DNA of 64,000 nt, taken from Escherichia coli (GTDB taxonomy: Bacteria; Pseudomonadota; Gammaproteobacteria; Enterobacterales; Enterobacteriaceae). The position numbers were made by a program, and so were the translations under genes. Location: the NCBI RefSeq assembly GCF_013315695.1, contig NZ_CP054353.1; one strand, written 5' to 3'. The notes beneath the pieces were generated by a model. That model saw only the letters and a program-made list of their open reading frames with translations, did not search any database and was not told the DNA's origin. Numbering within the stretch: position 1 is the stretch's first letter; the number at the start of each line of letters is the position of its first letter. Of this stretch, positions 31,958 to 50,007 are shown in pieces.

Positions 31958-32215
31958 TCACATCGCCGGAAGTGGCAGCGACATCTGCGCATCACCACGG
32001 TGTGACGCTGGCAGGCTCTGCCACGGAATATCCGGTGAAGTACCACCGCTGCGCTTTACGGTGAGTTTTTCGAAGCTCTCCAGCGTCGAGAAGGAGAGAC
32101 TGCATTCGGGATTGTTGCACTGGTAGAGCTTCTGCCGGACAGTGCGTGAGTCGTTCGCGGCGCGGCTTGTGCGGGTGCGCGTGCTCGCACCACAAAAAGG
32201 ACACGGAAAAGACAT
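31958..32215 (-). CDS. ogr: Ogr/Delta-type zinc-finger late-gene activator
   Basis: 85-aa ORF with CPFC...C...NPEC zinc-finger spacing, adjacent to gene D as in P2. Confidence 0.75.
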   Translation of the reverse strand: MSFPCPFCGASTRTRTSRAANDSRTVRQKLYQCNNPECSLSFSTLESFEKLTVKRSGGTSPDIPWQSLPASHRGDAQMSLPLPAM

Positions 32216-32267
32216 GACGGAGACCTCCTTTTTTTCATGAAGGTGAATCTCCGTGATTTTATTCCTG

Positions 32268-33383
32268 TTATTCCTGTTGCGCTATCCATTCAGGAATTTT
32301 TAATTCCAGCTCAAGCCGCGTGGTGAAGCCGCTGTCGTCGATGTTGTGCTCCACCTTCGCCAGTACCCAGTCCTCCGCGTCGATGTCACTCTTGAAACCG
32401 GATACCGTGCCGCGCATTTCGGGGTACAGGTCGGGGCGACCGCGTGCCAGCGTGATGGAGAACTCAGCCGCGCCGCGCTGTAGCTGCTGCCATTTTGCCG
32501 CCGCTGCACGGCGTGCGGCCTCCTCGTTTTTGAAGGTTTTACGCATGACGTACACATTGCCGTCTGCGCCCTCCATGTAATCCCCCTCGCGGCTGCTGCT
32601 TTTCTCCTTTTTTGTTTTTTGGGCAGAACCACGTTTTGTCACGCTGACTTTTTTCTTTTTGCCAAAGTCCAGATCCAGCCAGTAAGCGCGCACCCCCGTG
32701 TACGCCTGCCGGTCTGCAATGCGGAAGTGATGGCTGTCACCGCTGCTGCGGGTGATGGCGAATGAGGGCAGCGGCTTTCCGCTGGCGCTCACCCCCTGTC
32801 CGGGCACGATGAAAAGCAGGGCACCGTTTTTGACGGTGGCGATGGCGCCCAGCATGTCCGCCATGCGCGTGAGAAACGAGATGTCACTTTCCTCCGTCTG
32901 GTCGGCGTGGTCGATTTCCACCTCTGCCAGCGAGGCGCTGATTTGTGCCTTCAGTCCGTAGCGGTACGCGATGGCAGAAACAACCTGTCCCACCGTCACG
33001 TCATGCCAGGACACTTCACGCTTCACGTTGAACTCCTGCCGGAAGTCTGCGCTGCTGGCCGTGATGGTGAGCCTATCCGGTGGTCCCTCATGTGTCACCT
33101 CGTCAACGATGAAGGTTCCCTTGTCTGTCAGCGCCTCACCTTTCCAGCCCAGCGCCAGACCCAGCGTCTGTCCGCGCTTCGGGAGTTGCACTCCGCCGTC
33201 GCAGTCGTCAATCGTGAGGGTTAACTGGTCCGCCTCAAATCCCCGGTTGTCGGTCATCGCCAGCGAGATGACCCGTCGGGTCAGCGCCGCGTTTTCCGTG
33301 CCCTTAACCGTGATGGAAAAATCAGGGATCTTCACGCACTCTGACAGACCGTTCAGGTATCCGCTTACGTCCGCAGGGTTCAT
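32268..33383 (-). CDS. Tail protein D (P2 gpD family)
   Basis: Translation from the internal Met (MNPADVSGYLNG...) aligns along its length with my recollection of P2 gpD (LTMTDNRGFEADQL, SGDSHHF, EFSITLARGR motifs). Confidence 0.85.
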   Translation of the reverse strand: MNPADVSGYLNGLSECVKIPDFSITVKGTENAALTRRVISLAMTDNRGFEADQLTLTIDDCDGGVQLPKRGQTLGLALGWKGEALTDKGTFIVDEVTHEGPPDRLTITASSADFRQEFNVKREVSWHDVTVGQVVSAIAYRYGLKAQISASLAEVEIDHADQTEESDISFLTRMADMLGAIATVKNGALLFIVPGQGVSASGKPLPSFAITRSSGDSHHFRIADRQAYTGVRAYWLDLDFGKKKKVSVTKRGSAQKTKKEKSSSREGDYMEGADGNVYVMRKTFKNEEAARRAAAAKWQQLQRGAAEFSITLARGRPDLYPEMRGTVSGFKSDIDAEDWVLAKVEHNIDDSGFTTRLELELKIPEWIAQQE

Positions 33384-33545
33384 CGCAATTTCTCCGTCTG
33401 TGTCTTCGTCCGGCGAAATACTCCCACGCGCACGGAGGCGCTGTAATCCTGCGTATGTTGTCGGAGAACGGTGAGAACAGGCAGCGCGTGAATGCGGGGC
33501 TGTTTTTCGGGAGGATGTCGCCACACAAAACACCAGGAGGTGCTC

Positions 33546-34727
33546 ATGAGTGAAACACGCTTTCACGGTGCACGCGTCAAAGAAAACACCGACCTTGTGA
33601 CCGCGATTAATGACATTGATTCCAGTGTCATCGGTATCGTGGCCACGGCGGACGATGCAGACAGCGACGCGTTCCCGTTAAACAAACCCGTATTGATCAC
33701 CCGCGTGGCGAATGTGCTGGGTAAGGCAGGCACAACAGGCACGCTGTACAAAACGCTCAAGGCGATTTCCGACCAGACCAGCCCGAAGGTTATCGTGGTG
33801 CGTGTGGCTGAAGCCGGAGAGGAAGGTGAGACACAGGATCAGCTTGTCATCGGTGGCTCGCAGGCTGACGGCAGCTACACGGGCATGTATGCCCTGCTGG
33901 TTGCTGAACAGGACGAGAGCATTGGTTACCGCCCGCGCATTCTGGCGGCTCCCGGCCTGGATACCGAAGCAGTCACATCCGCCCTGTGCGTCATTGCGGA
34001 CAAGCTCCGCGCCTTTGTGTACGCCGGATGTAACGGGTGCGACACGATGGCGGAGGCAATCACTTACCGTGCGAAGTTCTCCGCGCGTGAGCTGATGCTG
34101 CTGTGGCCTGACTTCATTGCCTACAACCCGGTGAGCGGAAATAACGAAACATTTCCGGCAGCGGCGTATGCGTGCGGGTTGCGTGCGCGGATTGACAGTG
34201 AACAGGGCTGGCACAAGTCACTGTCCAACGTGGCGCTGAAAAATGTTCTCGGTATGTCGCAGCAGGTGTTCTGGTCGTTGCAGGCCGAAGACAGTGATGC
34301 GAACAACCTGAACAACAAGGAAATCACCACGATTATTCGCCGTAACGGCTTCCGCTTCTGGGGGAACCGTACTGCCGAAACCAGCGACTACATCTTTGAG
34401 GTGTACACGCGCACAGCGCAGATTCTGGCAGATACCATCGCTGAGGCGCAGTTCGAAACCATTGACGAACCGCTGACCCCGGCGAACGTGAAGGACGTGA
34501 TTAGCGCCATCCGCGCAAAACTCAACGCCCTGGTCACCGCCGGGAAACTCATCGGTGCGGAGTGCTGGTATGACGTGCTGGACAACGGCACGACGGATTT
34601 GCGTCAGGGGCGCGTGCGCATCCGCTACAAGTACACGCCAGTGCCGCCGATGGAAGATCTGACGCTGTATCAGACCTTCACGGATGAGTATTTCGACTCC
34701 GCTTTTGCAACGCTGGGAGGTGCGTAA
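33546..34727 (+). CDS. Contractile tail sheath protein (gpFI)
   Basis: From ATG 33546 with AGGAGG RBS; FPLNKPVLIT, GFRFWGNRT and YTPVPPMEDLTL motifs match P2 FI. Confidence 0.9.
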   Translation: MSETRFHGARVKENTDLVTAINDIDSSVIGIVATADDADSDAFPLNKPVLITRVANVLGKAGTTGTLYKTLKAISDQTSPKVIVVRVAEAGEEGETQDQLVIGGSQADGSYTGMYALLVAEQDESIGYRPRILAAPGLDTEAVTSALCVIADKLRAFVYAGCNGCDTMAEAITYRAKFSARELMLLWPDFIAYNPVSGNNETFPAAAYACGLRARIDSEQGWHKSLSNVALKNVLGMSQQVFWSLQAEDSDANNLNNKEITTIIRRNGFRFWGNRTAETSDYIFEVYTRTAQILADTIAEAQFETIDEPLTPANVKDVISAIRAKLNALVTAGKLIGAECWYDVLDNGTTDLRQGRVRIRYKYTPVPPMEDLTLYQTFTDEYFDSAFATLGGA

Positions 34728-35243
34728 ATGGCTGTACCACGTTACGTTCGCCAGTTCACGCTGTTTGTGAACGGCAAAAACAAAATCGGCACGGTGACAG
34801 GCGTCACTCTGCCCAAGCTGACCCGAAAAACCGAAGCCTATCGCGGTGGCGGGATGCTGGGTGCGGTGCATATTGACCTCGGACTGGATGACGGCGCACT
34901 GGATGCCTCGTTCACCACCGGTGGGGTTGAAAAAGAGCTGCTCCAGGAATACGCCACTGACATTAACGAAGTGGCGCTGCGCTTTGTGGGTGAGCTGTTC
35001 ACCGATGGTGAGGAAAGTCAGCTCCTTGAGGTGGAGATGCGCGGACGCATCACGGAAATCGACCGTGGCGAAACCAAACAGGGCGACACCACACAGTACA
35101 CCTTCGCCGTCAAAAACACCTACTACAAGGAGTCGGTGGATGACAGTGATGTGACAGAAATCGACCTGCTGAACTTCATCTACAAAAAAGACGGCCAGAA
35201 CGTCTTTGGTGACCGCGTGAGTTCGGCGCTCGGTCTGAACTGA
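34728..35243 (+). CDS. Tail tube protein (gpFII)
   Basis: 171-aa ORF immediately after FI, P2 FII-like. Confidence 0.9.
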   Translation: MAVPRYVRQFTLFVNGKNKIGTVTGVTLPKLTRKTEAYRGGGMLGAVHIDLGLDDGALDASFTTGGVEKELLQEYATDINEVALRFVGELFTDGEESQLLEVEMRGRITEIDRGETKQGDTTQYTFAVKNTYYKESVDDSDVTEIDLLNFIYKKDGQNVFGDRVSSALGLN

Positions 35244-35289
35244 CAGCATTAACAGGGCGGCACATTGTGCCGCCACAGGAGAAAGAAAA

Positions 35290-35673
35290 ATGGCAGCAAA
35301 GAAAGATGACATCATGAACAGCGAAATCGTCGCAGGTGACACCACCACTGAAAACATCGATGTGGCAGAGGAAAAAACGGGGGTGAAGTTATCCTGCCCG
35401 GTGGTGCGTGGCGAACGCGTTATTGACTACGTGGAGATTGGCGAGGAAATCCGTCAGGCAGGCTCGTTGCGCGGGCTGTCTCTGATTGAGGTGCTGAACC
35501 TCAAAACGGACCCGATGATGACGCTGCTTTCGCGCGTGACCGCACCACGCCTGAAGCTGGCAGAAATCCAGACACTGGACACCGGTGATTTCGTGGCGCT
35601 GGCGACTATGGCTGCGAATTTTTTTGCTCCCACGGAGTCTGCGAAACCGTCCGTGGCGGTGATGGAAGCGTAA
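35290..35673 (+). CDS. Tail assembly chaperone gpE
   Basis: 127-aa ORF between the tube and tape-measure genes; contains a T7G slippery run near its 3' end. Confidence 0.7.
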   Translation: MAAKKDDIMNSEIVAGDTTTENIDVAEEKTGVKLSCPVVRGERVIDYVEIGEEIRQAGSLRGLSLIEVLNLKTDPMMTLLSRVTAPRLKLAEIQTLDTGDFVALATMAANFFAPTESAKPSVAVMEA

Positions 35674-35837
35674 TCACGCTGGCGAAGTTCGACAACGTTG
35701 AAGAACTGGTCGCTGATATAGCAGTCGTGTTTAACTGGTCGCCCGGCGAGATATTCTCAATGCCTCTCGTCGAGGTGATGAGCTGGCGTGAGCGGGCGGC
35801 GCAACGTAGCGGAGTCCGCAACAGTGAAATCCCTTGA
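35290..35837 (+). CDS. gpE+E' fusion produced by programmed -1 frameshift
   Basis: TTTTTTTG at 35619-35626; the -1 frame is open from the slip site to TGA at 35835-35837, overlapping the start of T, as in P2 E/E'. Confidence 0.55.
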
Positions 35838-38800
35838 TATTCGTGTCAGCTTTGGCGCAATTGACCGGCTGACATGCCCGACCGAAAACGCCCGCCGTCA
35901 GGTGGGCGCTCTCACTGAATCCCTTCAGAAGACGCAGAACAACATACAGGCGCTCGACAGACAGTCGAAGGTGTTCGATCGTGCCGCCGGAAATCTCAGT
36001 AAATACCGCGAACAGATTGCCCGCGCGGAGCAGAGGCTCGCCGGGCTGCGAAAGGCAGAGCAGAACGGTAACATCCTCTCCGAAAAGCAGCGCGAAACGC
36101 TGGCGGCACTCTCCGCGCGGCTTGAGCGCCTGAACGAGCTGCGCACGCGCGAGCGCGAAAAACTCCAGGCGGCGGCTGGCGAAATGCGTAAACATGGCAT
36201 TCTGCTTTCCGGCAGCAGCCGCACCATCGAAAGTGCCGTTCGTCGCACGCAGCAGTACAACGAGCAGCTCGAGCGTGAACGGCAGGCTCTGGCTCGCGTG
36301 ACGCAGGCACAGAGCCGCTATGAGGCCGCGAAGGCACAGGCGGAAAAACTGCGCAACACAGGGGCTGTGGCGATGGCGGCGGGTACAGGCGGCCTGTATG
36401 CGGCGCAGCGCATGATGGCTCCGGCGATGGAGTCCGAACAGCACGGTGCGGTCATCGCAGCCGGTTCGGGGGAAGGCGCACAGGATGGCGCACGTTACAC
36501 CCACATCATCCGTAACATACAGGCTGACGGTCTCGCTGATTTTGCCGGTGCTGCGGAGGCCGTGAGTGCGGTACGCAGCACGCTCGGCGCACTGGGCGAC
36601 ACCGGTGACAGGGAGCTTGAGCGCATCAGCCGTCGTGCGCTGGATATGCGGACCGTCTTTGGTGTTGATGTGCCGCAGAGCATTCAGGCCGCTGCCATCA
36701 TGATGAAGAACGGGCTGGCCGCCAGCAGTGACGAGGCTACTAACCTGATGACGGCAGGGATGCAGCGCATGTCCGCTGAAATGCGCGATGAACTGCCGGA
36801 AATTCTGCATGAGTATTCCACCCACTTCCGCAACATGGGCTTCACCGGCAGCGAGACAATGAGTCTGCTGGTTGAGATGGCAAAGCAGGGCAAGTTTGCG
36901 CTGGACAAAACCGGCGATGCCGTGAAGGAGTTCAGTATCCGTGGTTCGGATATGTCGAAATCCAGTGTTTCAGCGTATGAGACACTTGGCCTGAATGCCG
37001 AACGGGTGTCTGCTGCCATTGCTCAGGGGGGCAGTACCGCACGCCAGGCGATGCAGGTGACCGCCCGTGCACTGCTGGCCATCCGTGACCCGGCAGAGCG
37101 GGCGAACACGGCCATTGCGTTATTCGGCACCCCCGTTGAAGACCTTTCCGTTGACCAGATCCCGCAGTTCCTGAGGGCGCTGGCTGATGTTCGTGACAAT
37201 CTGGGCGATGTCACCGGTGTGGCAGACCGCATGGGGCAGACGCTGCGCGGTAATCTCTCCGGCGATATTCAGGCGCTGAGTGGTGCGTTCTCAGGGCTAC
37301 GCACGGACATCTTCGGTACTGTGACCGAGGATTTGCGCGGGCTGGTTCAGACGGTGAGCGCGTGGGTGACCCGGATGCGCGAATGGGTCGGAGAGCATCA
37401 GGCGCTGGTCAGGGTGCTGGTACTGGCGGGCGGGAGTGTTCTGGCGCTGTCTTCTACGTTCGGTGCGCTGTCACTGACGCTCGGGCTGATTGCGGGGCCG
37501 CTGGCAAAACTGCAACTGGGACTGGGGCTGCTGACGGGGGGCGGCGGCATTGGTGGTGCTGTCCGGCTTGTGTCTGCGATGGCGCTGCGCCTGACGGGGC
37601 TGCCTGCGCTGTGGGGGCTGGTCACGGGGGCGGTGTCGGTACTGGGTGGTGCAGTGGGGGCGCTGTTCAGCCCGGTCGGGCTGATTGTTGCCGCCCTGGT
37701 GGGCGGCGCGGTTCTGGTGTGGAAATACTGGGATCAGATCAGTGCGTTTTTTTCCGGCTTTTTTGCCGGAGTGTGGGAGGCGCTGCAACCGCTGCGGGAA
37801 GCCTTTGCGTCGCTGGCTCCGGTGTTCGGGCTGATTGGCGATGGCATCAAAGCCGTGTGGGAATGGTTCACCCGCCTGCTTGAACCTGCAAACGCCTCAA
37901 AAGAGACACTCGACAAATGCACCAGCGCCGGGGAGTCGTTCGGGAAAACGCTGGGGTGGGTCATTCAGAACATTGTGCTGGGGCCGCTGACACTGCTTCT
38001 TGATGGCCTCGGCACAGTGCTGAAGTGGCTGGGTGTTATCCCGGATGGCATCAGGGAAGCGCAGAAGGAGACGCAAAAACTCCAGGAGAGCGCCGCAAAA
38101 CAGGCCACACAAAAAGCGCCGGTTGCGTGGGAGTGGGATCCTGCACAGAAAAAAATGGTGCAGAAAACATGGTCGTGGTCATCAGATGCAGCGGAAAACA
38201 ACGGTGACAATAAACCCGCAATACCTGCCCCTGCGGTTCCCGGAGAGGTGAAGGGAACGTCAGACAATCCGGTCGGCAAACCCGGTAGTAAATCCCCGCT
38301 GGATGAGGCATGGTTCCGGCAGGGGATACAGAAAACCGCCAGCAACACCGGCGGGCTGCTTGAGGAAACCAAAAAACGTACTGGTCCCGGCGATATTGTT
38401 TTCAAAAACCTGCCCGGACCCGAAATCATTCACGGCGAGTGGAAAGCACCGCAGGTTATCCGGACAGTGCAGGCGGTATCGGCGGGCGGAGGACTGGCGG
38501 ATGCGCTGACAACGCTCTGGCAGAAACTCACCGGAAGACAGACTGCTTCACCCGTTCCGGTCGTGAATATTCCTGCGCCAGTGGAGAGAGTGGCACGTCA
38601 GGTATCCACGCTGCCACAGCCGCAGCACAACGAGGCAAATACAGAACTGGTTGCCGGTATTCAGCGCGTGCATGAGGCTGTGAACAGTCCGGGGGGAGAG
38701 ACGGTATCGCCTCCACCTGTGGTGAACGTTCTGATGCCAGCAGTGAATGTTCCTGCGCCAGTGGTGAGTGTGGCGCGTCAGGTATCCACGCTGCCGCAGC

Positions 38801-39288
38801 ACAACGAGGCAAATACAGAACTGGTTGCCGGTATTCAGCGTGTGCATGAGGCGGTGAACAGTCCGGGTGGAGAGACGGTATCGCCTCCACCTGTGGTGAA
38901 CGTTCTGATGCCAGCAGTGAATGTTCCTGCGCCAGTGGTGAGCGTGGCCCGTCAGGTATCCACGCTGCCGCAGCACAACGAGGCAAATACAGAGCTGGCT
39001 GCCGGTATTCAGCGCGTGCGTGAGGCTGTGAACAGTCCGGGTGGAGATGTGGCTTTATCTGTTCCTGTTGCGGAGGTTATCCGTCCACCGCTGCGACCGG
39101 AGTCCGTCAAAAAAGAAACCGCGCCACAAACGCAGGCTGCGGTATTTTCCGGTGAGATACACGTGCATCTGCACAACGTCAACACGCAGAATCCGCGTGA
39201 ACTGGCAAAACTGGTTGGCGAGGCTGTCCGCGAAGAGATGCGCAGACAGGTGCGTACAGGCATGAACAGCTTCCGTGACAGGGACTAA
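35788..39288 (+). CDS. Tail tape measure protein (gpT)
   Basis: 1166-aa ORF with a coiled-coil N-terminal half, Gly-rich TM segments and C-terminal tandem repeats; the track start at 35788 is a GTG and the true start is uncertain. Confidence 0.85.
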   Translation: MSGRRNVAESATVKSLDIRVSFGAIDRLTCPTENARRQVGALTESLQKTQNNIQALDRQSKVFDRAAGNLSKYREQIARAEQRLAGLRKAEQNGNILSEKQRETLAALSARLERLNELRTREREKLQAAAGEMRKHGILLSGSSRTIESAVRRTQQYNEQLERERQALARVTQAQSRYEAAKAQAEKLRNTGAVAMAAGTGGLYAAQRMMAPAMESEQHGAVIAAGSGEGAQDGARYTHIIRNIQADGLADFAGAAEAVSAVRSTLGALGDTGDRELERISRRALDMRTVFGVDVPQSIQAAAIMMKNGLAASSDEATNLMTAGMQRMSAEMRDELPEILHEYSTHFRNMGFTGSETMSLLVEMAKQGKFALDKTGDAVKEFSIRGSDMSKSSVSAYETLGLNAERVSAAIAQGGSTARQAMQVTARALLAIRDPAERANTAIALFGTPVEDLSVDQIPQFLRALADVRDNLGDVTGVADRMGQTLRGNLSGDIQALSGAFSGLRTDIFGTVTEDLRGLVQTVSAWVTRMREWVGEHQALVRVLVLAGGSVLALSSTFGALSLTLGLIAGPLAKLQLGLGLLTGGGGIGGAVRLVSAMALRLTGLPALWGLVTGAVSVLGGAVGALFSPVGLIVAALVGGAVLVWKYWDQISAFFSGFFAGVWEALQPLREAFASLAPVFGLIGDGIKAVWEWFTRLLEPANASKETLDKCTSAGESFGKTLGWVIQNIVLGPLTLLLDGLGTVLKWLGVIPDGIREAQKETQKLQESAAKQATQKAPVAWEWDPAQKKMVQKTWSWSSDAAENNGDNKPAIPAPAVPGEVKGTSDNPVGKPGSKSPLDEAWFRQGIQKTASNTGGLLEETKKRTGPGDIVFKNLPGPEIIHGEWKAPQVIRTVQAVSAGGGLADALTTLWQKLTGRQTASPVPVVNIPAPVERVARQVSTLPQPQHNEANTELVAGIQRVHEAVNSPGGETVSPPPVVNVLMPAVNVPAPVVSVARQVSTLPQHNEANTELVAGIQRVHEAVNSPGGETVSPPPVVNVLMPAVNVPAPVVSVARQVSTLPQHNEANTELAAGIQRVREAVNSPGGDVALSVPVAEVIRPPLRPESVKKETAPQTQAAVFSGEIHVHLHNVNTQNPRELAKLVGEAVREEMRRQVRTGMNSFRDRD
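38555..39052 (+). repeat. Tandem repeats of 180/174 nt inside the tape-measure gene (about 2.8 copies)
   Basis: gtgaat(a/g)ttcctgcgccagtgg... recurs at 38563, 38743 and 38917; encoded peptide PAPVxxVARQVSTLPQ...HNEANTELVAGIQRVHEAVNSPGGETVSPPPVVNVLMPAVNV repeats in frame. Confidence 0.7.
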
Positions 39289-39760
39289 AGGAGACGCAAT
39301 TATGATGATGATTTTTGGCATGTTTGTGTTTGAACTGAAAACGCTGCCGCATCAACAGATTCAACAAAACAAAACGTGGCGGCATGTGAAAAATGAGCGA
39401 ATCAACCGTTCTGCGGCCTGGCAGTATATTGGCGCAGGTGACGACCAGATCACGCTGTCCGGTCTGCTGTACCCGGAAATTACCGGCGGTGAGGTGTCGC
39501 TGACACTGCTGAACACCCAGGCCTACACCGGATGTCCCTGGCCGCTGATTGATGGTACGGGGCAGATTTACGGAATGTACGTGATTACGGGATTACAGAC
39601 CACCCGCTCCGAACTGGATCGCTACGGGAAGGCAAAAAAGATTGAGTTCTCCATCAGCTTTCAGCGGTGTGATGAGGATATGCGGGAGAGGCTTCAGTCT
39701 GCTTCTGCAGGTGATTTACTGAACACGCTTAAAGACAAAATGGCGATAGCGGCATTCTGA
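39275..39760 (+). CDS. Tail protein U (gpU family)
   Basis: 161-aa ORF following T with an MMMIFGMFVFELKT segment; the actual start may be the internal ATG at 39302. Confidence 0.8.
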   Translation: MTGTKGDAIMMMIFGMFVFELKTLPHQQIQQNKTWRHVKNERINRSAAWQYIGAGDDQITLSGLLYPEITGGEVSLTLLNTQAYTGCPWPLIDGTGQIYGMYVITGLQTTRSELDRYGKAKKIEFSISFQRCDEDMRERLQSASAGDLLNTLKDKMAIAAF

Positions 39761-41249: not shown

Positions 41250-41528
41250 TCAGCTCCATTCCCGAAGCGGTGCTTCCAGCTCCACCACATAATCAGAGAA
41301 CACAGAAACATCAAACGTATCATCAAGAATACGAATGTTGACAAAATAACCGTCATTCCGGATACAGACAGGTTCTCCCTCTTCATTTTCCCCTGTTTCT
41401 GTATAGGTGAAACCAATTTCATCGACTAACAGTTTGTTCTGGAGGTCTTCATTTTCCTCCCAGCCAAGAGATGACAGGAGGGCTTTAAACTGCTGTTTGT
41501 CATGAAACTTCAAAGTCAAATCTTTCAT
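41250..41528 (-). CDS. Hypothetical acidic protein downstream of the tail fibre gene
   Basis: 92-aa ORF overlapping the H stop by 4 nt; strongly acidic; no family recognised; it occupies the position of a tail fibre assembly protein. Confidence 0.5.
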   Translation of the reverse strand: MKDLTLKFHDKQQFKALLSSLGWEENEDLQNKLLVDEIGFTYTETGENEEGEPVCIRNDGYFVNIRILDDTFDVSVFSDYVVELEAPLREWS

Positions 41529-43306
41529 ATTGCCTCTCTTAATTGCCTGTCATTTAATTCTTTATGCCATATGCGGAAATTACGAATGTGACCAAACAGA
41601 TGTCGTTCTCCAGTACTCGTTCGCCCTCCAATACGGATAATTGCGGAGTTCTGAATATATGACCATGTGGTTTTTGTTTCGCCGGATAACCGTCCGTTAC
41701 TGACTGAGCATGTAGACTGATCTGACTTTACTCGCATCCCTATAACCATTTTTTCAAGTGATGCGTTTTCGTTTACCCGCATGTTAGCCCCGCCTATATC
41801 GCAATAAGGAAATCCGTCGTAATCCGTCGAACGACCGAATCCAAGAATAATTTCCTCTCCAGTTTGATGACCACTGGTATTAAGAACACGCGGTGCTGCA
41901 TTTGGCGTTTTATACCAGTTCTTATGTACCTCACAAAGAACAGTAAAAGGAGGATTATAAAGATTATTCTTAACCGGAACTGTCACAATATCACTTGCAC
42001 GTGTTGCTGGTGTTGCACCCGATATAATAAATGATGATGCGCAGGGGCCATTTTCAACCTGAGGGGTGGACAGGAAAACATAATCTCCTGATTCAACGAC
42101 ACCACCTTCTTTCGGAGTGTATTGTATTGCCGATGTTATGTAGGACTCATCAATTGCCTGAATCGTTGCCTCTGCAAAAATCCAGCCGGTAACCTCATCT
42201 TTGTTAACTCGGGCAGTGATCCTGTCGGCAGCTCCTCCTGTGATTTTAACTGATAAAGATCGCGTATTAACAATGGCATATCCAAGGTTAGATGATGTGT
42301 TGCCATCGTAAGATTCAAACCTGATCCTTAACATGAGTTCCAGATCAGTTTTAAATCTGCACGATGTCGTCACGCACTTATTATCGCCTGAAACATCGAC
42401 GGCTCCGGTTACTGCAACTGATGCCATGTTAACAGGCAGGGACTGCCCAATCAGAGAATCGTTACAGACGAACTTTCCATAGGTAAAACCAGAACTGTCC
42501 GTCCCGGTTTCGGGAACATCCATATTTACCGACTTGCCCCAGTTGACCGGGGTTTCCGAATTGAGCATGTAGTTTGTTCTTTGCCCTTCAATAAGCAGTC
42601 CATCGCGTTCAAATCGCGGCTCATTAATTTCAGCTATTTTCAGTTCACCGGATTTATTGATATAGGTTGCCGTTGATGCGCGACTGAAACTAACCTGTTT
42701 ATCACTGGCAACCTGAACCACATCGTCACCAATGGTGATTTTTTTATAGCCCGGTGCGAACCCCGTAAGCATATCCAGTGAATCGTTAAACGGTATCCAC
42801 ACATCAGGCAGCGGCGGTACAGACTCCTTTTCCTGCGCAACATATTCTTCAACATAGGCGCGGGTGGCGAGCACGACAGAGGGATCAACTTTCAGTTCGA
42901 CAGACGAAGCACTGGAAACCACAACAATCATGCGAATCGTCTGCGTGCGCCCGCTTCCCTCGGTGAGTACAGGCTTGTAGGTTTCGGGGCAGTTCGCCAC
43001 GGCAATCATCACGCCGTCGCTGTCAAAAAGCCCAATCTCGCGGATCCAGAACCCCCCTTTATCTTCCGGGATAATCATCTCGGCGATAAGCTGGCTGGCA
43101 TCAGACGCGCTGATGCTCAGTTGATTCAATGGGGCGCTGTATACCGTGTTCACCAGATTTTCCATGGAAGCCTCCGGTTCCGGCAGGCTGCCGCCGCCAT
43201 CCCCCAGTTTCATGGTGGTGATGGATATTTTCGAGCCGCTGGCCACCGCCTTTGCCAGACGGGCGGCACCCTTGTCAGTCAGAACAGAAAAATATTTTAC
43301 AGTCAT
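41525..43306 (-). CDS. Tail fibre protein (gpH family) with divergent lower-GC C-terminal module
   Basis: N-terminus matches P2 H (ITTMKLGDGGG, GFWIREIGLFD, AVANCPETYKPVLTEGSG, RMIVVVSSASSVEL); the C-terminal two thirds are unrelated to P2 H. Confidence 0.8.
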   Translation of the reverse strand: MTVKYFSVLTDKGAARLAKAVASGSKISITTMKLGDGGGSLPEPEASMENLVNTVYSAPLNQLSISASDASQLIAEMIIPEDKGGFWIREIGLFDSDGVMIAVANCPETYKPVLTEGSGRTQTIRMIVVVSSASSVELKVDPSVVLATRAYVEEYVAQEKESVPPLPDVWIPFNDSLDMLTGFAPGYKKITIGDDVVQVASDKQVSFSRASTATYINKSGELKIAEINEPRFERDGLLIEGQRTNYMLNSETPVNWGKSVNMDVPETGTDSSGFTYGKFVCNDSLIGQSLPVNMASVAVTGAVDVSGDNKCVTTSCRFKTDLELMLRIRFESYDGNTSSNLGYAIVNTRSLSVKITGGAADRITARVNKDEVTGWIFAEATIQAIDESYITSAIQYTPKEGGVVESGDYVFLSTPQVENGPCASSFIISGATPATRASDIVTVPVKNNLYNPPFTVLCEVHKNWYKTPNAAPRVLNTSGHQTGEEIILGFGRSTDYDGFPYCDIGGANMRVNENASLEKMVIGMRVKSDQSTCSVSNGRLSGETKTTWSYIQNSAIIRIGGRTSTGERHLFGHIRNFRIWHKELNDRQLREAI

Positions 43307-44079
43307 GAAAAAATCCTCAAAGAATCCTCCAGAAATACCACTGATGCTGTCAGGGTTCCGGTTGTGGCGGTCAGTTGCATCACCGCCTGTGGCTCCACGG
43401 TCACCGCATCATCGCCCGTAACCTGTAATCCCATGACAATCCCCGCATCGACAGATACCGACGGTGTCGGCGGGTAAATGGTGAGCATGTCGCCGTCAAA
43501 GAAAGCCGGAGATGCCCGGAACACCGAAACAGTCTCAACACCGGCAGAAGCGGCTGGCCAGATTGTTGTTTCACTGCCGTCGTGCATGCCGGAAAACACA
43601 CGTGCGACTCCCTGCGTATCCAGCATAATGTTCAGCGAGGCAAGGTGGCGGCTGACCGGACGGGCATCGTCGATCAGTCGTGTCAGCTCGGAGTACGTTT
43701 CCTCTGTGATACCCGCGTCCTGCACGCCAATATCAATGCGGAACGTGCCGCGCGGGTCGCCGTTCTGCCACCACTCCGTCACGTTAATGACATAGCCAAA
43801 GGGTTCAACCACACGCCTGATGGCGCTGATGGTTCCCTTATGGCGGTGGATTGCCCAGGCATCACGGATCACCTGGCGCTTTGTTTCTTCCGTCCAGTCA
43901 CGATCCCACCTGTCCACGGACAGCGCCCACGCCAGATAAGGCAGCAGGGCTGCCGGGCAGGTGTCAGGATCCCAGAGCTGGTTAAGGCTGACAGGTAATG
44001 CTGACAACCGGGCGGTTCCCCGCTCCACGCAGCGCATGAAATCGCTGGCTGAAGGGGGGAGAAGTGACGGTTCACTCAT
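43303..44079 (-). CDS. Baseplate protein gpI
   Basis: NQLWDPDTCPAALLPYLAWALSVDRWD and TISAIRRVVEPFGYVINVTEWW motifs match P2 gpI; start taken at the internal Met 4 nt after the J stop. Confidence 0.85.
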   Translation of the reverse strand: MSEPSLLPPSASDFMRCVERGTARLSALPVSLNQLWDPDTCPAALLPYLAWALSVDRWDRDWTEETKRQVIRDAWAIHRHKGTISAIRRVVEPFGYVINVTEWWQNGDPRGTFRIDIGVQDAGITEETYSELTRLIDDARPVSRHLASLNIMLDTQGVARVFSGMHDGSETTIWPAASAGVETVSVFRASPAFFDGDMLTIYPPTPSVSVDAGIVMGLQVTGDDAVTVEPQAVMQLTATTGTLTASVVFLEDSLRIFS

Positions 44080-44968
44080 TGGTTCCCCCTGTGCTGACCG
44101 TGAACGATGTGCAGTACGCTGACTGCACATCACTGATAACAATATTCTGTGCGGGGCTGGTCAGTTCCACGCGCTGAACGCCCTGAACATGCAGTGCGGC
44201 CATGATGGCGGAGAGCGCGACATCGCGACCGATTTTGCCCTGTTCGGCAAGCCAGGTTTCCAGATTGTTTCTGGCGGCATTCAGGATGGGTTCCGACTCC
44301 GGCCCCGGATAAAAGTAAAGCCGGGCATCAATCTGATACCGTATGATTTCTGCGCTCTGCACCGTCAGACGGTCACCGACCGGGCGAACGTCTTCGGCAT
44401 TCAGCGCATTTCTGACCGTTGTCAGGAGTTCTTCGGTCGCCGTGCCGTCGCCTTCTGTGGACAACACTGTCACCACCACTTCCGCCGGTGCGGGGCTGGT
44501 TGCGCGCGCGTCCGCCACCTGACCGCTGGCACTGCGGGCAAAATATTCATACGCCCCGGTGGGACCGGCCACGCTGAGGCCATCAAATGCAGACTGCGCA
44601 CGCAGCCGCAGGGCGGAGTCGCTTTCCATGACGGCCTCCGTGGTGTCCATGGCCGGTGTGATGACCAGCCGCGCGGTGTTCATGTTGGCAGCGAGGTTGT
44701 CCAGGTCATCACCTGTGGAATGGCTCAGCATACAGGCCGCTGCGCCCTCATTAATGCGCTGGCGAAGCAGCAGTTCACGCAGCGCGAAAGCCTGGGCAAT
44801 GACCGTGAGCGGTTCGGACTCCAACGCCATGGCTGACCGGATGGCAGCCTGCTGTGTCTGTGGAAATGACGTAATGATGTCTTCTTTCACTTCCGCTAGG
44901 ATGACTTCAAAATCCGGCGTTTCAATAATCTGTGGTGTCGGCAGTTCCGACAGGTCAACGGCTGGCAT
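44072..44968 (-). CDS. Baseplate assembly protein gpJ
   Basis: 298-aa ORF, N-terminal MPAVDLSELPTPQIIE and C-terminal VQGVQRVEL...TGG match P2 J. Confidence 0.9.
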   Translation of the reverse strand: MPAVDLSELPTPQIIETPDFEVILAEVKEDIITSFPQTQQAAIRSAMALESEPLTVIAQAFALRELLLRQRINEGAAACMLSHSTGDDLDNLAANMNTARLVITPAMDTTEAVMESDSALRLRAQSAFDGLSVAGPTGAYEYFARSASGQVADARATSPAPAEVVVTVLSTEGDGTATEELLTTVRNALNAEDVRPVGDRLTVQSAEIIRYQIDARLYFYPGPESEPILNAARNNLETWLAEQGKIGRDVALSAIMAALHVQGVQRVELTSPAQNIVISDVQSAYCTSFTVSTGGTNE

Positions 44969-45320
44969 TGTCGCTCCTGAGTGTCAGTGTGTTCTGTACG
45001 GTTTCCAGGCTTTCTGTCAGTGTGCCGGTGAGGGTGATAACGGCTTTTCCGCCCGCCTCCCACTGAATGTCAACGGCATTCAGGGCGATGCGTGGCTCCC
45101 ACTGTGTCAGGGCAATCACCACGGCGCTCATGCACTGAAGGCGCGTGGTGGCATTCATCGGTGCATCCAGCAAATCCGGCAGCAGGCTGCCGTATTCCCG
45201 GCGCATCACCCGGCTGGCGAGCGGTGTTAACAGAATATCCCTCACGCTGTTCCACAGATGGTCCGTGTCGCTGAGCGTGCCGGTGGCCTCGGGGTTCATC
45301 CCCAGAAAACGGGCACTCAC
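44955..45320 (-). CDS. Baseplate protein gpW
   Basis: 121-aa ORF, ARFLGMN...RVMRREYGSLLPDLLD as in P2 W. Confidence 0.85.
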   Translation of the reverse strand: MSARFLGMNPEATGTLSDTDHLWNSVRDILLTPLASRVMRREYGSLLPDLLDAPMNATTRLQCMSAVVIALTQWEPRIALNAVDIQWEAGGKAVITLTGTLTESLETVQNTLTLRSDNASR

Positions 45321-45898
45321 TGCGGGCCTCCTGTGCTGTCACCGCCGCTCTTCACGCCACTGTGTTTGTGCGTGTGCAGCGTCACACCGTTTGAGGTGAA
45401 ATCACCGCCGCTGTGCGAGATACTGCCACTCATGGTTCCGCCTTCTGTCACCTCAATCGTTGTCGTCTTCAGATGGTTTGTGCAGGTGACGGTGGGGGTA
45501 TCCAGCGTCACGCCTGTTCCGGCCTGAATGGTGGCAGTTTTGATTCCGCTGGCGCTCAGTGCGCCAGCGTCCGCATCGTAGCGGAACACCGCGCCGTCAG
45601 GCGCTGTAACCACGATTTCCGTCAGGCTGCTGCCGGGCGCCGGATGTTCGCTGCTCCAGAGACTGCCGATGACGGACGCGGTCGCGGGGTCGCCACCGAT
45701 GCAGGCAATCATGACCTGTTCGCCCACGGCAGGCGGCAGCCAGACGCTGAACGCGCCCGCGCGTGGTGTGTTCCAGCGCAGCCAGTCGGTTTCCAGCTCT
45801 CCGCTGCGCACGCGAACGCGCCACGTTGTTTCGTCCACGGCAAAAATCACGCCCGTGCGGATGATATTTGCAAGCAGTCGCATGATTTCCGCTGTCAT
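45317..45898 (-). CDS. Baseplate spike protein gpV
   Basis: 193-aa ORF with the C-terminal GVTLHTHKH..GG.TGGP motif of P2 V. Confidence 0.85.
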   Translation of the reverse strand: MTAEIMRLLANIIRTGVIFAVDETTWRVRVRSGELETDWLRWNTPRAGAFSVWLPPAVGEQVMIACIGGDPATASVIGSLWSSEHPAPGSSLTEIVVTAPDGAVFRYDADAGALSASGIKTATIQAGTGVTLDTPTVTCTNHLKTTTIEVTEGGTMSGSISHSGGDFTSNGVTLHTHKHSGVKSGGDSTGGPQ

Positions 45899-46533
45899 CG
45901 TGCTGCACTCCCCAGGGAACGGATAATCGCGTCACGCATCCGGCGTTCGTCGGCTGCGGTCACACCCAGCAGTTCACGCACCGGGTAGGTGGTCATCACG
46001 CCCGGTGTCACCTCGTCGCGTAACCCCGCCTGATGCACGCGGGCAATCCGCGCAGCCAGGCCATCAAAGCCCACCACAGCGCCTTCCGCATCTGAGCGCA
46101 TTTTTAACCAGCGATATGTGCGAAGACGCGCGAACATCGGCGTGCTTTTCTTGCTGGTCTGGCGGGCAGACATGGACGATACAGCGAGGTATCGTTCAAT
46201 ATCATCGCGGTAAAACGTCCTCAGTGCGCCGCCACGGTCAGGGTCGCGCCCGATGATGGCGCGGCCTTTCCGGTAACGTTTGTGCCCCCACTGGCGCAGC
46301 GTGCGGACCTCGCCGTTCCAGACAAACTTCACCTCCCGGCGGGTGTGCATTACCTGCTGTTTTCGCGCCGGATACGGCGAACCGTCTGCGTTCTTCTGCG
46401 TACGGATACGCGCCTGCTGGCTCTGGCGCAGCGCCTGCCCGACAGCCCTCGCCGTGCGTGCACGTCCGGCGGTGGAAAGTCCGTTCAGGATGTCGCGGAA
46501 AACCGCGTCCGGGTCATGCGTCGTCGTGTTCAT
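45895..46533 (-). CDS. Phage virion morphogenesis / tail completion protein (gpS-like)
   Basis: 212-aa basic ORF in the S position between R and V; the family assignment rests on position and is weaker than for its neighbours. Confidence 0.65.
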   Translation of the reverse strand: MNTTTHDPDAVFRDILNGLSTAGRARTARAVGQALRQSQQARIRTQKNADGSPYPARKQQVMHTRREVKFVWNGEVRTLRQWGHKRYRKGRAIIGRDPDRGGALRTFYRDDIERYLAVSSMSARQTSKKSTPMFARLRTYRWLKMRSDAEGAVVGFDGLAARIARVHQAGLRDEVTPGVMTTYPVRELLGVTAADERRMRDAIIRSLGSAAR

Positions 46534-46996
46534 CCGTCAAATCCTTAAAGGTCACATCCTCAACAATCAGCTCTCCCCAGGCTCCTGTCAGTGCGGCAGG
46601 CGGGCGGGGTTCCGGCAGGTGCACCGGATACAGTTCCCCCTGTTCATTGCGACAGACTTTCACGCGCTCGCGCACGGGAATTTCCAGTAACAGGTCGGTG
46701 CTGTCGTCGTCATTGACGGCAACGGAAAACTTAACGTCCTTGTTTTTCTCCGGGTTGAGCAGCAAATCCGGCTGGTTGTGCATGAGCCAGACAATCAGCG
46801 GCAGCATCAGCTCGTCGATGTGTCCCGGAAAATCCATGACGAAGGCCACGAGCGTGTAACGGTAGACAAACGTCGGGGTTTCACCCGTGGTCTCAATACT
46901 TCCGCTTTCTGCAAACACGGTGAGTTTTTCCGGATTCGCGCGACACCACCGGGATGAGGCGGTGAGGGCTTCGCGCAGACGGTTCATTTTCAGCAT
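46514..46996 (-). CDS. Tail completion protein gpR
   Basis: 160-aa ORF, MLKMNRLREALTAS...NQPDLL... resembles P2 R. Confidence 0.8.
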   Translation of the reverse strand: MLKMNRLREALTASSRWCRANPEKLTVFAESGSIETTGETPTFVYRYTLVAFVMDFPGHIDELMLPLIVWLMHNQPDLLLNPEKNKDVKFSVAVNDDDSTDLLLEIPVRERVKVCRNEQGELYPVHLPEPRPPAALTGAWGELIVEDVTFKDLTDEHDDA

Positions 46997-47005
46997 GACT
47001 TCTCC

Positions 47006-47299
47006 TTACGGTCGCATCCGGCGTTGTTGTTCGGTTGCTTTAATGGCTGCCTTGTCAGCGTTGCAGCTCTCCAGTGCGTCCAGCAGCCGGTCACTCCAGA
47101 CGGCCAGTCCGCCCCACGTCAGCGGACGGGGCAGGGACGGCACCGGCGTTGGCTGTGTCAGACTTTCCGGCAGCGGTGCGTGCTGCGTCTGAGTGACCAC
47201 GACGGGGCGCGGCGCGCTGTTGCAGGCGGTCAGCAACAGCGGCAGGCACAGCAGCAGCCGCGCACGGATTTTCCCGGAGTGTGTTGCGTATCTCTTCAC
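47006..47299 (-). CDS. Outer-membrane spanin lipoprotein (LysC/Rz1-like), start inside the i-spanin gene
   Basis: Alternate frame overlapping lysB; lipobox LLTAC followed by a Pro-rich region; the GTG start at 47299 is inferred. Confidence 0.55.
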   Translation of the reverse strand: MKRYATHSGKIRARLLLCLPLLLTACNSAPRPVVVTQTQHAPLPESLTQPTPVPSLPRPLTWGGLAVWSDRLLDALESCNADKAAIKATEQQRRMRP

Positions 47300-47537
47300 G
47301 GCGTTTTTCTCCCTCCTGATTCCGGTGCTGCTCTGCGGCGCGGACCTGCGCCAGCAGGTCGCTGATGCCCCGGAGTTCCGCATGAAGTGCATCCACGGCG
47401 GCATTTGTTCCCGCCAGCGCCTGTTCGTGATATTCCCGGCGCGCCCGTTCATGCCCTGCCTGCCAGGCCAGACGCAGTGACACCAGATACAGCGCCCCCG
47501 AAAACAGGGCGACGACGGCGGCGGTGGTCAGCCTCAT
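47091..47537 (-). CDS. Inner-membrane spanin (LysB/Rz-like)
   Basis: N-terminal TM helix (MRLTTAAVVALFSGALYLVSL) and a coiled-coil periplasmic domain; ATGA overlap with the endolysin gene. Confidence 0.6.
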   Translation of the reverse strand: MRLTTAAVVALFSGALYLVSLRLAWQAGHERARREYHEQALAGTNAAVDALHAELRGISDLLAQVRAAEQHRNQEGEKRREEIRNTLRENPCAAAAVPAAVADRLQQRAAPRRGHSDAARTAAGKSDTANAGAVPAPSADVGRTGRLE

Positions 47538-48076
47538 TTCTGTTTCTCCACATCCCGCAGACACCAGGCGCGAAAATCGCTGCGGCGGTTAACCAGTCCC
47601 TGACTGCGCTTCCCGCCTGCATTCACAAAATCAGTGAGGCGGGCACACATCCGCGCCCAGTTATGCGCCTGTGCCTGTTTCCAGATGGTGGTGCGCTGGC
47701 GCTTACCGTTGCGGTCCCTGAACCACATCAGACCGGAGCACCCCAGATTGAAGGCTGCATCCGTCATCGCCTCGAAGGCCGACTGCGGCATGGCTGCCCC
47801 CTGAAAATTCTGGTTAATACAGCTCTCCGCCCGCTGCATGTCATTCACCCAGCGACGGGCCACCTCCTGCTCGCTGTACAGGTGTTTCTGTACGTTCCCC
47901 GTGGAGCCGCAGCCCACGGTGGCAACACCCGCGATGTCCGTGTAGGGTGTGGCGCGGCAGTCTTCCCACGTGGCAATTTTTATCTGTGCCTCCTGTGAGG
48001 TGCGCAGTGCTTCAGGAGCCAGCGAGACACCCAGCGCCACAATCACGGCGGCGGCATATCGCTTAATGTTTTTCAT
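47534..48076 (-). CDS. Endolysin (lysozyme-type, gpK-like) with N-terminal signal-anchor
   Basis: MKNIKRYAAAVIVALGVSLA then a lysozyme-like domain in the K position. Confidence 0.8.
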   Translation of the reverse strand: MKNIKRYAAAVIVALGVSLAPEALRTSQEAQIKIATWEDCRATPYTDIAGVATVGCGSTGNVQKHLYSEQEVARRWVNDMQRAESCINQNFQGAAMPQSAFEAMTDAAFNLGCSGLMWFRDRNGKRQRTTIWKQAQAHNWARMCARLTDFVNAGGKRSQGLVNRRSDFRAWCLRDVEKQK

Positions 48077-48356
48077 CGTTATCCCGTTGCAGTGCGGCAA
48101 GCGCCCGTTGTTCACTTTCATGAAGCCCGCGCGTTCCGGCCTGTGCCAGAATCTGTGCAATCAGCGCATTGCGGCGGACCTGCGCACGCTCCATGCGGCG
48201 ACGGTGAAGCCAGCCCTGAAAGAGTGAAAGCGCACCCAGCAGCAGCCCGGCCAGCGCGATTTTTTCGCTGATGGTCATCGCGCCAATCGTGACCGCAGAG
48301 ACGGAGGCGGCGAAGGCGATGTGGTCGTAAATACTGCGAAAAAAACCTAATCCCAT
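48063..48356 (-). CDS. Holin (gpY-like)
   Basis: 97 aa with two TM segments and a charged C-terminus, immediately upstream of the endolysin gene; start taken at the internal Met. Confidence 0.6.
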   Translation of the reverse strand: MGLGFFRSIYDHIAFAASVSAVTIGAMTISEKIALAGLLLGALSLFQGWLHRRRMERAQVRRNALIAQILAQAGTRGLHESEQRALAALQRDNDEKH

Positions 48357-48547
48357 AACTGCACCGTCTCCCGTGTTTTTTTCTCTTCCTGCTCCGGTAA
48401 TTCCACTTCCTGTCCGGCCTCCAGAAAAATCTGTCCGCACAGCCCCGGATTGGCGGCCAGCACCTTTTCGGTCACGCCCTGCGTTGTGCCGTAGTGCCGG
48501 AAGCACAGCAGGTCAACGGTGTCGTCCTGTAATGCCTTCACCTTCAT
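48347..48547 (-). CDS. Tail protein gpX
   Basis: MKVKALQDDTVDLLCFRHYGTTQGVTEKVLAANPGL matches P2 X. Confidence 0.75.
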   Translation of the reverse strand: MKVKALQDDTVDLLCFRHYGTTQGVTEKVLAANPGLCGQIFLEAGQEVELPEQEEKKTRETVQLWD

Positions 48548-49041
48548 CAGCACAGCCTCGCAAAGATGCGCGGTGCGCCCTGAATATCGGCAATGGCCCA
48601 GCGCACGTCGCGCCAGAGGTCACCGGTCTGGGCTTCCAGTGCGTCCGCTTTCCGGTCGCCCTGTTCGGTGGTGTCCACATCGCGCACGCGCTCCAGTATC
48701 AGGGCGCGGGTGGCGGCATACACCGCAAGACGGAAGCGGTGCACGTTGACGCTTTCGCCGTTCACGCGGGAAGCCGGAACGTCCGCCAGCGTGCGGTATC
48801 CGTCATTCATCTGCTGCGTCTGCCAGTTGCGCAGCTCACCGGTGACGTGTGCCACGGCTTCGGTTGCCGCGTGCATCAGGCGCGACGTGGTGGTGCGACC
48901 GGGCAGGCGCACGGCAAGACGCAGCGCGCGCAGTTCTGTCTCCGGCCAGAAGTCGTCCGTGGTGATGCGTGCATCACCGTCGTCCGTGTCCGCGACATCC
49001 TCCGTCGCGGCAGTGATACCGGGTTTTGCAATCATGCTCAT
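48547..49041 (-). CDS. Capsid completion protein gpL
   Basis: 164-aa ORF; the C-terminal ...LWRDVRWAIADIQGAPR region resembles P2 L. Confidence 0.8.
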   Translation of the reverse strand: MSMIAKPGITAATEDVADTDDGDARITTDDFWPETELRALRLAVRLPGRTTTSRLMHAATEAVAHVTGELRNWQTQQMNDGYRTLADVPASRVNGESVNVHRFRLAVYAATRALILERVRDVDTTEQGDRKADALEAQTGDLWRDVRWAIADIQGAPRIFARLC

Positions 49042-49160
49042 GACGAGCCTCCGTTAAAAAGTCAGGCGGTGGGCGAACGGTCAGAAGGTCGCGGAGTTAA
49101 AAAACCAGGTGACCGTTCGCGCCGCCTGTCGCCGGGGCGAAGTCGGTATGCGTGAGAGTC

Positions 49161-49958
49161 TCACGCGGATTTTTTGCTTTTCCGTGTGGCAGTGGCTTTT
49201 GTGGCGCTCTTTTTGCCTGCCTTTTTCGTCACGGTTTTCGCGGTACTTTTGCCTTCCGCGTTGTTCTCCGCACCGTCGGTACTGGTCAGCTTTTTCACTG
49301 CACGGGACAGCGTGGCAATCTCGCGCTTCACGCCCGCGTTCGGGTTCAGGTGCATCGCTTCGCGCAGCAGTTTCAATGATGAAGCCATACTGTCCGCATC
49401 GGTCAGACCACGGCGGGAAAAGGCGCACGCCTTGCAGAGTTTGGCGCGGACCTCGTCCGGCATGTCCCGACCGGCGATAATTTCCTGTAGCGTGTCCAGC
49501 GGGGCGATGTATCCGGACAAATCCGCGTCCTGGTCAGTGCCTGCCAGCGTCAGCACCGGGTTACAGATTTCCTCTGTCAGCAGCGTGGCGGCATCGCGCC
49601 CGAAGCTGTCCGGTGTGCTGAGGTTATGGCGTACCACGTACTCACCGATGCGCAGCGCCAGCGGCAAATCACCGCAGTCAACGGCCCAGACCATGAGGGT
49701 GACTATCACCTCATCCTGGCGTCCGCTGTCGCTCTCGAGCGTGCCGTCAATCCAGCCGGAAAAATCCGGCAGCAGCGTCTTTTTCAGTTCCGCTTTCGCT
49801 GCCTTTGACTGAATGCCTTTCAGTCGTGCCTGTGCCAGTCGCAGGCGATGCAGGATTTGTTCGTGAGCCGTGCGCACCGTCTGTGACTGACTGTCATCGG
49901 TCAGTCCGGCGCGTTGTGCCATCGTGCGCTGAAAATGCGCCTGTGCCGGTGTCAGCAT
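49161..49958 (-). CDS. Terminase endonuclease (small) subunit gpM
   Basis: 265-aa ORF with a MPDEVRAKL motif and Lys-rich C-terminal tail as in P2 M. Confidence 0.85.
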   Translation of the reverse strand: MLTPAQAHFQRTMAQRAGLTDDSQSQTVRTAHEQILHRLRLAQARLKGIQSKAAKAELKKTLLPDFSGWIDGTLESDSGRQDEVIVTLMVWAVDCGDLPLALRIGEYVVRHNLSTPDSFGRDAATLLTEEICNPVLTLAGTDQDADLSGYIAPLDTLQEIIAGRDMPDEVRAKLCKACAFSRRGLTDADSMASSLKLLREAMHLNPNAGVKREIATLSRAVKKLTSTDGAENNAEGKSTAKTVTKKAGKKSATKATATRKSKKSA

Positions 49959-50007
49959 TGTTCTCTCCTCTTACGGGCGGTCAGCGCCCGCCCGTGGTTC
50001 AGGTAAA

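Follow-up and report, generated by a model that had tools for sequence, protein, structure and literature searches.

A predicted P2-type gpE/gpE+E' frameshift site with an all-T slippery heptamer in a P88-like prophage of Escherichia coli

The closest well-described counterpart of the site analysed here lies in the tail module of phage P2, where the slippery sequence TTTTTTG gives rise to products of 91 and 142 aa and no structure is found downstream (PMC3091744). The GenBank record of P2 (AF063097) places a -1 frameshift at the homologous position and describes E+E' as an essential tail protein. The shift rate of P2 and its relatives is 2- to 3-fold above that of lambda (PMC5009743). The lambda gpG/gpGT pair follows the same logic, with a common N terminus and overlapping ORFs between the major tail and tape measure genes. 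Lambda uses the heptamer G_GGA_AAG, and its tail is non-contractile. The gpG/gpGT frameshift is reportedly the subject of work by Levin et al. in 1993 and by Xu et al. in 2004, 2013 and 2014, and Christie is said to have put the P2 E+E' shift rate at ~10% in 2002.

Here we describe the corresponding region of an E. coli genome, studied within a stretch of 64,000 nucleotides of contig NZ_CP054353.1 (assembly GCF_013315695.1), hereafter the window. Judged by its sequence, the feature belongs to the P2 gpE/gpE+E' recoding family, displaying every sequence-level defining feature that was tested, and it very probably encodes a gpE/gpE+E' tail assembly chaperone pair, generated by a -1 slip, in a P2-family prophage of P88-like architecture. 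The site is an ordinary one, expected for any P2-family tail module; what is unusual is only its all-T heptamer together with the linked loss of an upstream Shine-Dalgarno-like element, a minor variant of the signal. The relevant features are:

34728..35243, plus strand: tail tube gene FII, immediately 5' of E (Pfam PF04985, E=3e-46)
35290..35673, plus strand: gene E, putative tail assembly chaperone (ORF, P2 gpE homology, PHROG 103, gene position)
35586..35588, plus strand: upstream TGA closing the -1 frame (sequence reading, script)
35607..35614, plus strand: upstream patch ATGGCTGC, Shine-Dalgarno-like element absent (lineage alignments, element scan)
35619..35625, plus strand: slippery heptamer T_TTT_TTT, the sole in-phase X_XXY_YYZ heptamer of ORF E
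35625..35837, plus strand: E' extension in the -1 frame, 70 codons plus TGA (translation, PF06528, PHROG 1756)
35630..35656, plus strand: candidate hairpin CCACGGA/TCCGTGG, 7 bp with a 13-nt loop (35630-35636 pairing with 35650-35656)
35824..39288, plus strand: tape measure gene T with a GTG start (Pfam PF10145; the start agrees with RefSeq calls in relatives)

Gene E encodes a protein of 127 aa (13.7 kDa), ends at TAA 35671-35673 and is preceded by a likely ribosome binding site, AGGAG, ~8 nt 5' of the ATG. BLASTP aligns E with P2 gpE at 40% identity over 84 aa (E=2e-17), and E matches PHROG 103 'tail protein' at 1.4e-28. For E alone there was no Pfam or NCBIfam match and, because these models miss it, its homology is based on the BLASTP alignment and PHROG 103. 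Within the acidic N-terminal part of E, at ~35364, comparison of the window with loci L001, L088, L090, L092 and L093 reveals a 33-nt indel bordered by GCAGAGGAAAA direct repeats, the presence of which is independent of the slip-site allele. A four-gamete argument for recombination between this indel and the slip allele was dropped, since an indel between direct repeats may recur.

The preliminary description had reported a T7G run at 35619-35626, and the letters confirm it, a stretch of seven T occupying 35619-35625 and G being the next letter, 35626 (sequence reading and script). The zero-frame codons at the run are AAT TTT TTT GCT, and G 35626 lies outside the in-phase heptamer, in which TTT 35620-22 is the P-site codon and TTT 35623-25 the A-site codon; the zero-frame peptide across the site is LAEIQTLDTGDFVALATMAANFFAPTESAK. 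The -1 frame is open between TGA 35586-35588 and TGA 35835-35837, as had been claimed for its 3' end at 35837, and a search for a stop in this frame close to the slip site found none before TGA 35835-35837. The upstream TGA and the E stop at 35671-35673 delimit an 85-nt zone in which a shift yields full-length E+E'. With 18 copies in the window, where 6.7 would be expected, the octamer TTTTTTTG by itself is not diagnostic; the case is made by context and homology. A generic in-phase heptamer would fall within the 85-nt overlap by chance about 1 time in 10 (a rough estimate of our own), and it is the PF06528 domain in the -1 frame, together with a heptamer in 171 of 175 related loci, that takes the frameshift site beyond chance.

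Translated from the slip site, the -1 frame reads CSHGVCETVRGGDGSVITLAKFDNVEELVADIAVVFNWSPGEIFSMPLVEVMSWRERAAQRSGVRNSEIP. It matches Pfam PF06528 (Phage_P2_GpE) with 51.7 bits, where the cut-off is 23 (E=6e-14), as well as PHROG 1756 (2e-25) and PHROG 6416; by these profile matches, the -1 extension is genuinely coding. The full product, join(35290..35625,35625..35837), is a predicted gpE+E' of 182 aa and 19.8 kDa with the junction peptide LAEIQTLDTGDFVALATMAANFFCSHGVCETVR. P2 gpE+E' and this fusion can be aligned over their entire lengths, at 40% identity, and the slip site falls in the alignment column and phase of the frameshift site annotated in P2; the fusions of P88, P88_4B11 and phiT5282H also align, and the junction shares one column. 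The earlier statement that the T7G run reproduces P2 E/E' thus holds for the arrangement and not for the run itself, which in P2 is T6G, one T shorter. A tblastn search of phage genomes with the fusion matched 395 records, and every match listed consisted of two pieces, which implies two frames. Furthermore, conservation of the -1 frame sequence reaches upstream to the slip site across clades. A PDB sequence search with the fusion profile gave no match.

E' is without a translation start of its own. A script that scanned the -1 frame from 35589 onwards reached the first ATG, GTG or TTG codon only with GTG 35727; this codon is already six residues into the Pfam domain and lies downstream of the invariant A-D-x-A motif, and no Shine-Dalgarno sequence was seen before it. 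RefSeq nevertheless annotates E' in relatives as a separate ORF of 25, 39, 52 or 54 aa, that is, as a small gene with its own start and no recoding. The records of loci L001, L002, L088 and L089 (E. coli RefSeq) and L004 (P88) carry a stand-alone 'GpE family phage tail protein' or 'tail protein', and in none of these five records is there a ribosomal-slippage join. That PGAP calls such 25-54 aa ORFs in relatives, and that the P88 RefSeq entry lists two separate tail proteins, would agree with an independent E' gene, an explanation we consider extremely improbable: the called starts vary between genomes, the first candidate, GTG 35727, is inside the domain, the -1 frame is conserved up to the slip site, and according to the P2 record the fusion is essential. 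The short E' ORFs with their inconsistent start sites look instead like forced calls on a start-less frame. As the preliminary description had anticipated, standard ORF calling misses the recoding. The annotation gap is systematic for this prophage lineage and for P88-like phages; the 182-aa E+E' is missing from RefSeq, and the correct feature would be join(35290..35625,35625..35837).

In the -1 slip reading, most ribosomes would translate E from 35290 to TAA 35671-35673 and release the 127-aa protein. In a minority, the two Phe-tRNAs on TTT TTT (35620-35625) would slip back by one nucleotide and re-pair perfectly on TTT 35619-21 and TTT 35622-24, after which translation would resume at TGC 35625 in the -1 frame and continue to TGA 35835-35837, giving a 182-aa fusion with the E' domain in which ...AANFF is joined to CSHGV... 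An identical protein would alternatively result from just one A-site slip, at the first U_UUU tetramer. The A-site codon is UUU and not the UUG of P2, so that re-pairing would be cognate and intrinsic slippage should rise. By analogy with P2 and lambda, E and E+E' may both bind the tape measure protein, with the rarer long form recruiting tail tube subunits, and neither would be expected to end in the virion, as for P2 E/E+E' and lambda G/GT. Both the occurrence of the shift and its rate are predictions for this locus, and we infer the low E+E' ratio and the chaperone role from P2 and lambda (PMC5009743).

To assess conservation of the site, we collected 175 E'-domain loci from one genome per species, IMG/VR, a metagenome scan, E. 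coli genomes and reference phages. An in-phase slippery heptamer is present within the E/E' overlap in 171 of the 175 loci. T_TTT_TTG, in any combination, accounts for 111 loci, followed by T_TTT_TTA, A_AAT_TTT alone and C_CCT_TTC (16 loci each), T_TTT_TTC (7 loci) and T_TTT_TTT (5 loci), and four loci have no heptamer. The Z base is thus variable (G, A or C) among the relatives and is T in the window. The claim of a conserved site therefore stands as far as the heptamer is concerned, and its T7 form turns out to be a lineage-specific allele. One of the four heptamer-less loci has a T5 run, probably owing to an indel. In L087 (Enterobacter sp. EA-1 chromosome), the slip site, GGTTTTTGT, has T5 and not T6 through a 1-nt deletion, reflecting either a pseudogene or a homopolymer sequencing error. 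In P88_4B11 (L006, 1806) and 15 other loci the T6G heptamer has been lost and the site reads AAATTTTATG; these loci keep only the overlapping A_AAT_TTT, 3 nt upstream, a one-codon displacement of the slip position within the clade.

Within the 175 loci the T7 heptamer is found in the window lineage only, in five sequences: the window, E. coli strain 135, two IMG/VR contigs and one metagenome contig that is identical to the window over the compared region. Position 35625 is G in the T6G relatives, and T7 represents a G-to-T substitution at the Z position, through which E acquires Phe in place of Leu and the first codon of E' encodes Cys instead of Gly. An insertion fusing E and E' in frame was rejected as the origin of the run, as no gap interrupts the alignment and the usual stop still ends the zero frame. 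T7 is found on three or more diverged haplotypes, each with open E and E' frames, so the allele is inherited and is neither a read error nor new. The upstream patch is perfectly linked to the slip allele in all 11 lineage sequences: T6G alleles read ACT CTG GTG GCG AAT TTT TTG and T7 alleles ACT ATG GCT GCG AAT TTT TTT. The three upstream substitutions in the T7 alleles destroy a Shine-Dalgarno-like GGTGG that the T6G relatives and P2 keep at an equal spacing of 6 nt; the element of the T6G alleles corresponds, in both sequence and spacing, to that of the strongly conserved AAGGTGG in P2-like phages. We defined Shine-Dalgarno-like stimulators as in Sharma et al. 2014 (PMC4066793); the GGTGG of the T6G alleles falls within this definition, and a scan with the same definitions found no such element in the window allele. 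The all-T version of the signal is rare and probably more slippery.

A homopolymer of seven also invites the explanation that RNA polymerase adds one U at T7, so that some transcripts would encode E+E' in a single frame. Productive transcriptional slippage in bacteria is documented for runs of ~9 or more, longer than the 7 nt present here. Moreover, 106 of the 175 loci have only T6G, T6A, T6C or CCCTTTC, with a T-run never exceeding 6, and encode the same fusion; the ancestral mechanism of the family therefore cannot depend on a long homopolymer. E. coli genes show a marked under-representation of U7 and of A7 in each of the three phases, for which transcriptional slippage and indel mutation are possible reasons (PMC4066793); in addition, the U7 readout without stimulator, given below, is the highest of the four U6N motifs and could include a transcriptional part. 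On balance, transcriptional slippage is an improbable account of the site and would make at most a small contribution in the T7 allele.

For ribosomal slippage, the slipperiness of all 64 heptamers has been measured in E. coli, homogeneous A-site codons shifting better (Sharma et al., PMC4066793). In the supplement of that study, -1 shifting without stimulator, with the IS911 stimulators and with the IS3 pseudoknot was 0.326%, 0.446% and 10.2% for U7, 0.121%, 0.893% and 7.58% for U6C, 0.094%, 0.266% and 1.27% for U6A, and 0.118%, 0.247% and 0.765% for U6G, respectively (PMC4066793). Comparison of the U7 and U6G values makes the window heptamer intrinsically ~3 to 13 times slipperier than that of P2, and the same 3- to 13-fold difference in intrinsic slipperiness is predicted between the T6G and T7 heptamers of the lineage. 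Since U7 reaches only ~0.3% without stimulator and the P2 rate is reportedly ~10%, an additional context effect would be needed.

The candidate hairpin begins after a 4-nt spacer downstream of the heptamer, and its core has a predicted stability of -10 kcal/mol. The hairpin is of unremarkable stability, scoring z=-0.84 relative to shuffled sequences and ranking at about the 43rd percentile of control segments from this locus, and an A-to-T change in its 5' arm is uncompensated in one relative (L089/no107). We rejected 35630-35656 as a stimulator, given that it is no better than shuffles and local controls and that a pair is broken without compensation in a relative. Post-motif segments across the family exceed controls in structure by a small margin only (mean percentile 0.33), and the structure of the P2 segment is below average, in agreement with PMC3091744. 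An Rfam scan of 35400-36000 gave no match. Thus, the site fits neither the Shine-Dalgarno-stimulated type (dnaX/IS911) nor the structure-stimulated type (IS3/coronavirus).

The linked changes raise the possibility that T7 is a natural re-tuning, in which a weak heptamer with GGTGG was swapped for the strong U_UUU_UUU without the element. We offer this tentatively and regard it as rather unlikely; equally doubtful, though worth stating, is the corollary that four linked substitutions within 19 nt would have held the E : E+E' ratio within the range suited to tail assembly. Fusion proteins were clustered at ~65% identity, and three clusters hold both motif classes, the stronger or extended class comprising T7, CCCTTTC, CCCTTTT+T6G and AAATTTT:

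Cluster 12 (window lineage): T7, 3 without element; T6G, 5 with element
Cluster 10: stronger/extended motif, 17 without and 1 with element; plain T6G/T6A, 5 with element
Cluster 14: stronger/extended motif, 16 without element; plain T6G/T6A, 1 with element

These counts reflect few independent events, and some of the elements are merely the four-base GAGG. There are also exceptions, namely, one cluster of 23 T6G sites without the element and three T6C sites with it. The trade-off between heptamer strength and the Shine-Dalgarno-like element is accordingly put forward as a hypothesis, not a finding. If re-tuning were true, it would provide natural allele pairs for measuring how selection balances heptamer strength against upstream stimulators, and it would suggest that the conserved AAGGUGG of P2 is an unrecognised stimulator. 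T6G with GGTGG and T7 without it coexist in near-identical backgrounds, a natural experiment on the control of the chaperone ratio.

The site resides in a tail module with the gene order sheath (PF04984), tube FII, E, E', tape measure T and U (PF06995). The T start overlaps the E' end by 14 nt, which is comparable to the 8-nt overlap in P2. D (PF05954) and ogr (PF04606) are divergent and upstream, and the other genes on the minus strand are late genes for fibre, baseplate, tail completion, lysis and head; the FI-FII-E-E'-T-U block occupies 31958-39760 on the plus strand, and D, ogr and the other late genes 41525-52101 on the minus strand. The block is inverted relative to the FETUD-ogr operon of P2, and the layout of P88 (Xuanwuvirus) is identical. 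Gene T contains a 174-nt tandem repeat at 38563-39047 (2.8 copies, 93% matches) that encodes three ~58-aa repeats near the C terminus; T is 3051-3477 nt long in relatives, possibly by way of this tandem array. The surrounding chromosome is E. coli-like, with pheS-pheT-ihfA 98.7% identical. The prophage end adjoins ihfA (30988-31287), and a Hok/Gef-like ORF lies at 31589-31729 on the minus strand. In the phage genome collection the E region has no megablast match. A tail module 91-97% identical is found in 9 of 5426 complete E. coli genomes, where it is next to copA; with this prophage at ihfA and its relatives at copA, the element occupies different chromosomal sites.

This context also bears on the possibility of a relic site, in a prophage that has ceased to produce tails and in which the G-to-T substitution and the upstream changes linked to it are neutral or damaging. 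Certain relatives are plainly remnants; in E. coli AST205, the terminase is truncated, a methyltransferase is a pseudogene and IS421 has inserted. In the window, by contrast, the examined morphogenetic and replication genes are full length and both frames are intact: tail fibre, baseplate, tail completion, lysis, small terminase, capsid and scaffold genes, and likewise those for the large terminase, portal, partition protein, gpA-like replication nickase and a repressor-like regulator. T7 is, moreover, carried on at least three diverged haplotypes, and U7 is predicted to shift more, not less. We consider decay of this kind very improbable and retain the reading of a gpE/gpE+E' pair in a P2-family prophage.

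Among the known systems, lambda gpG/gpGT has no sequence similarity to the window E/E+E'. A -1 slip keeps its two products in a constant ratio, and the virion contains neither (PMC5009743). P2 gpE/gpE+E' resembles the window in its position between FII and T, its homologous E, the PF06528 E' domain, and the column and phase of the slip; in both, the E' stop overlaps the T start and downstream structure is unsupported. The two differ in the heptamer (U_UUU_UUG in P2, U_UUU_UUU in the window), in the AAGGUGG-type Shine-Dalgarno-like upstream element, which P2 has and the window does not, and in the length of E, which is 91 aa in P2 and 127 aa with an acidic N-terminal extension in the window. 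Relative to P2, the window E' also has a 10-residue insert after the junction, and the FI-to-U block of the window, unlike that of P2, is in inverted orientation to D and ogr. The closest named phages are P88 and other Xuanwuvirus members (Peduoviridae; gp47/gp46), with ~50-55% aa identity in E+E', although the P88 group has no megablast-level DNA similarity to the window and the frameshift is unannotated in its records. P88 shares the inverted FI-FII-E-E'-T-U block, the divergent D, the hok/gef gene, and the replication endonuclease and ParM, and the lengths of its E and E' and its 85-nt overlap equal those of the window. The slip signals themselves differ, P88 having an extended A_AAT_TTT_TTG with two overlapping heptamers, P88_4B11 A_AAT_TTT only, and the window T_TTT_TTT.
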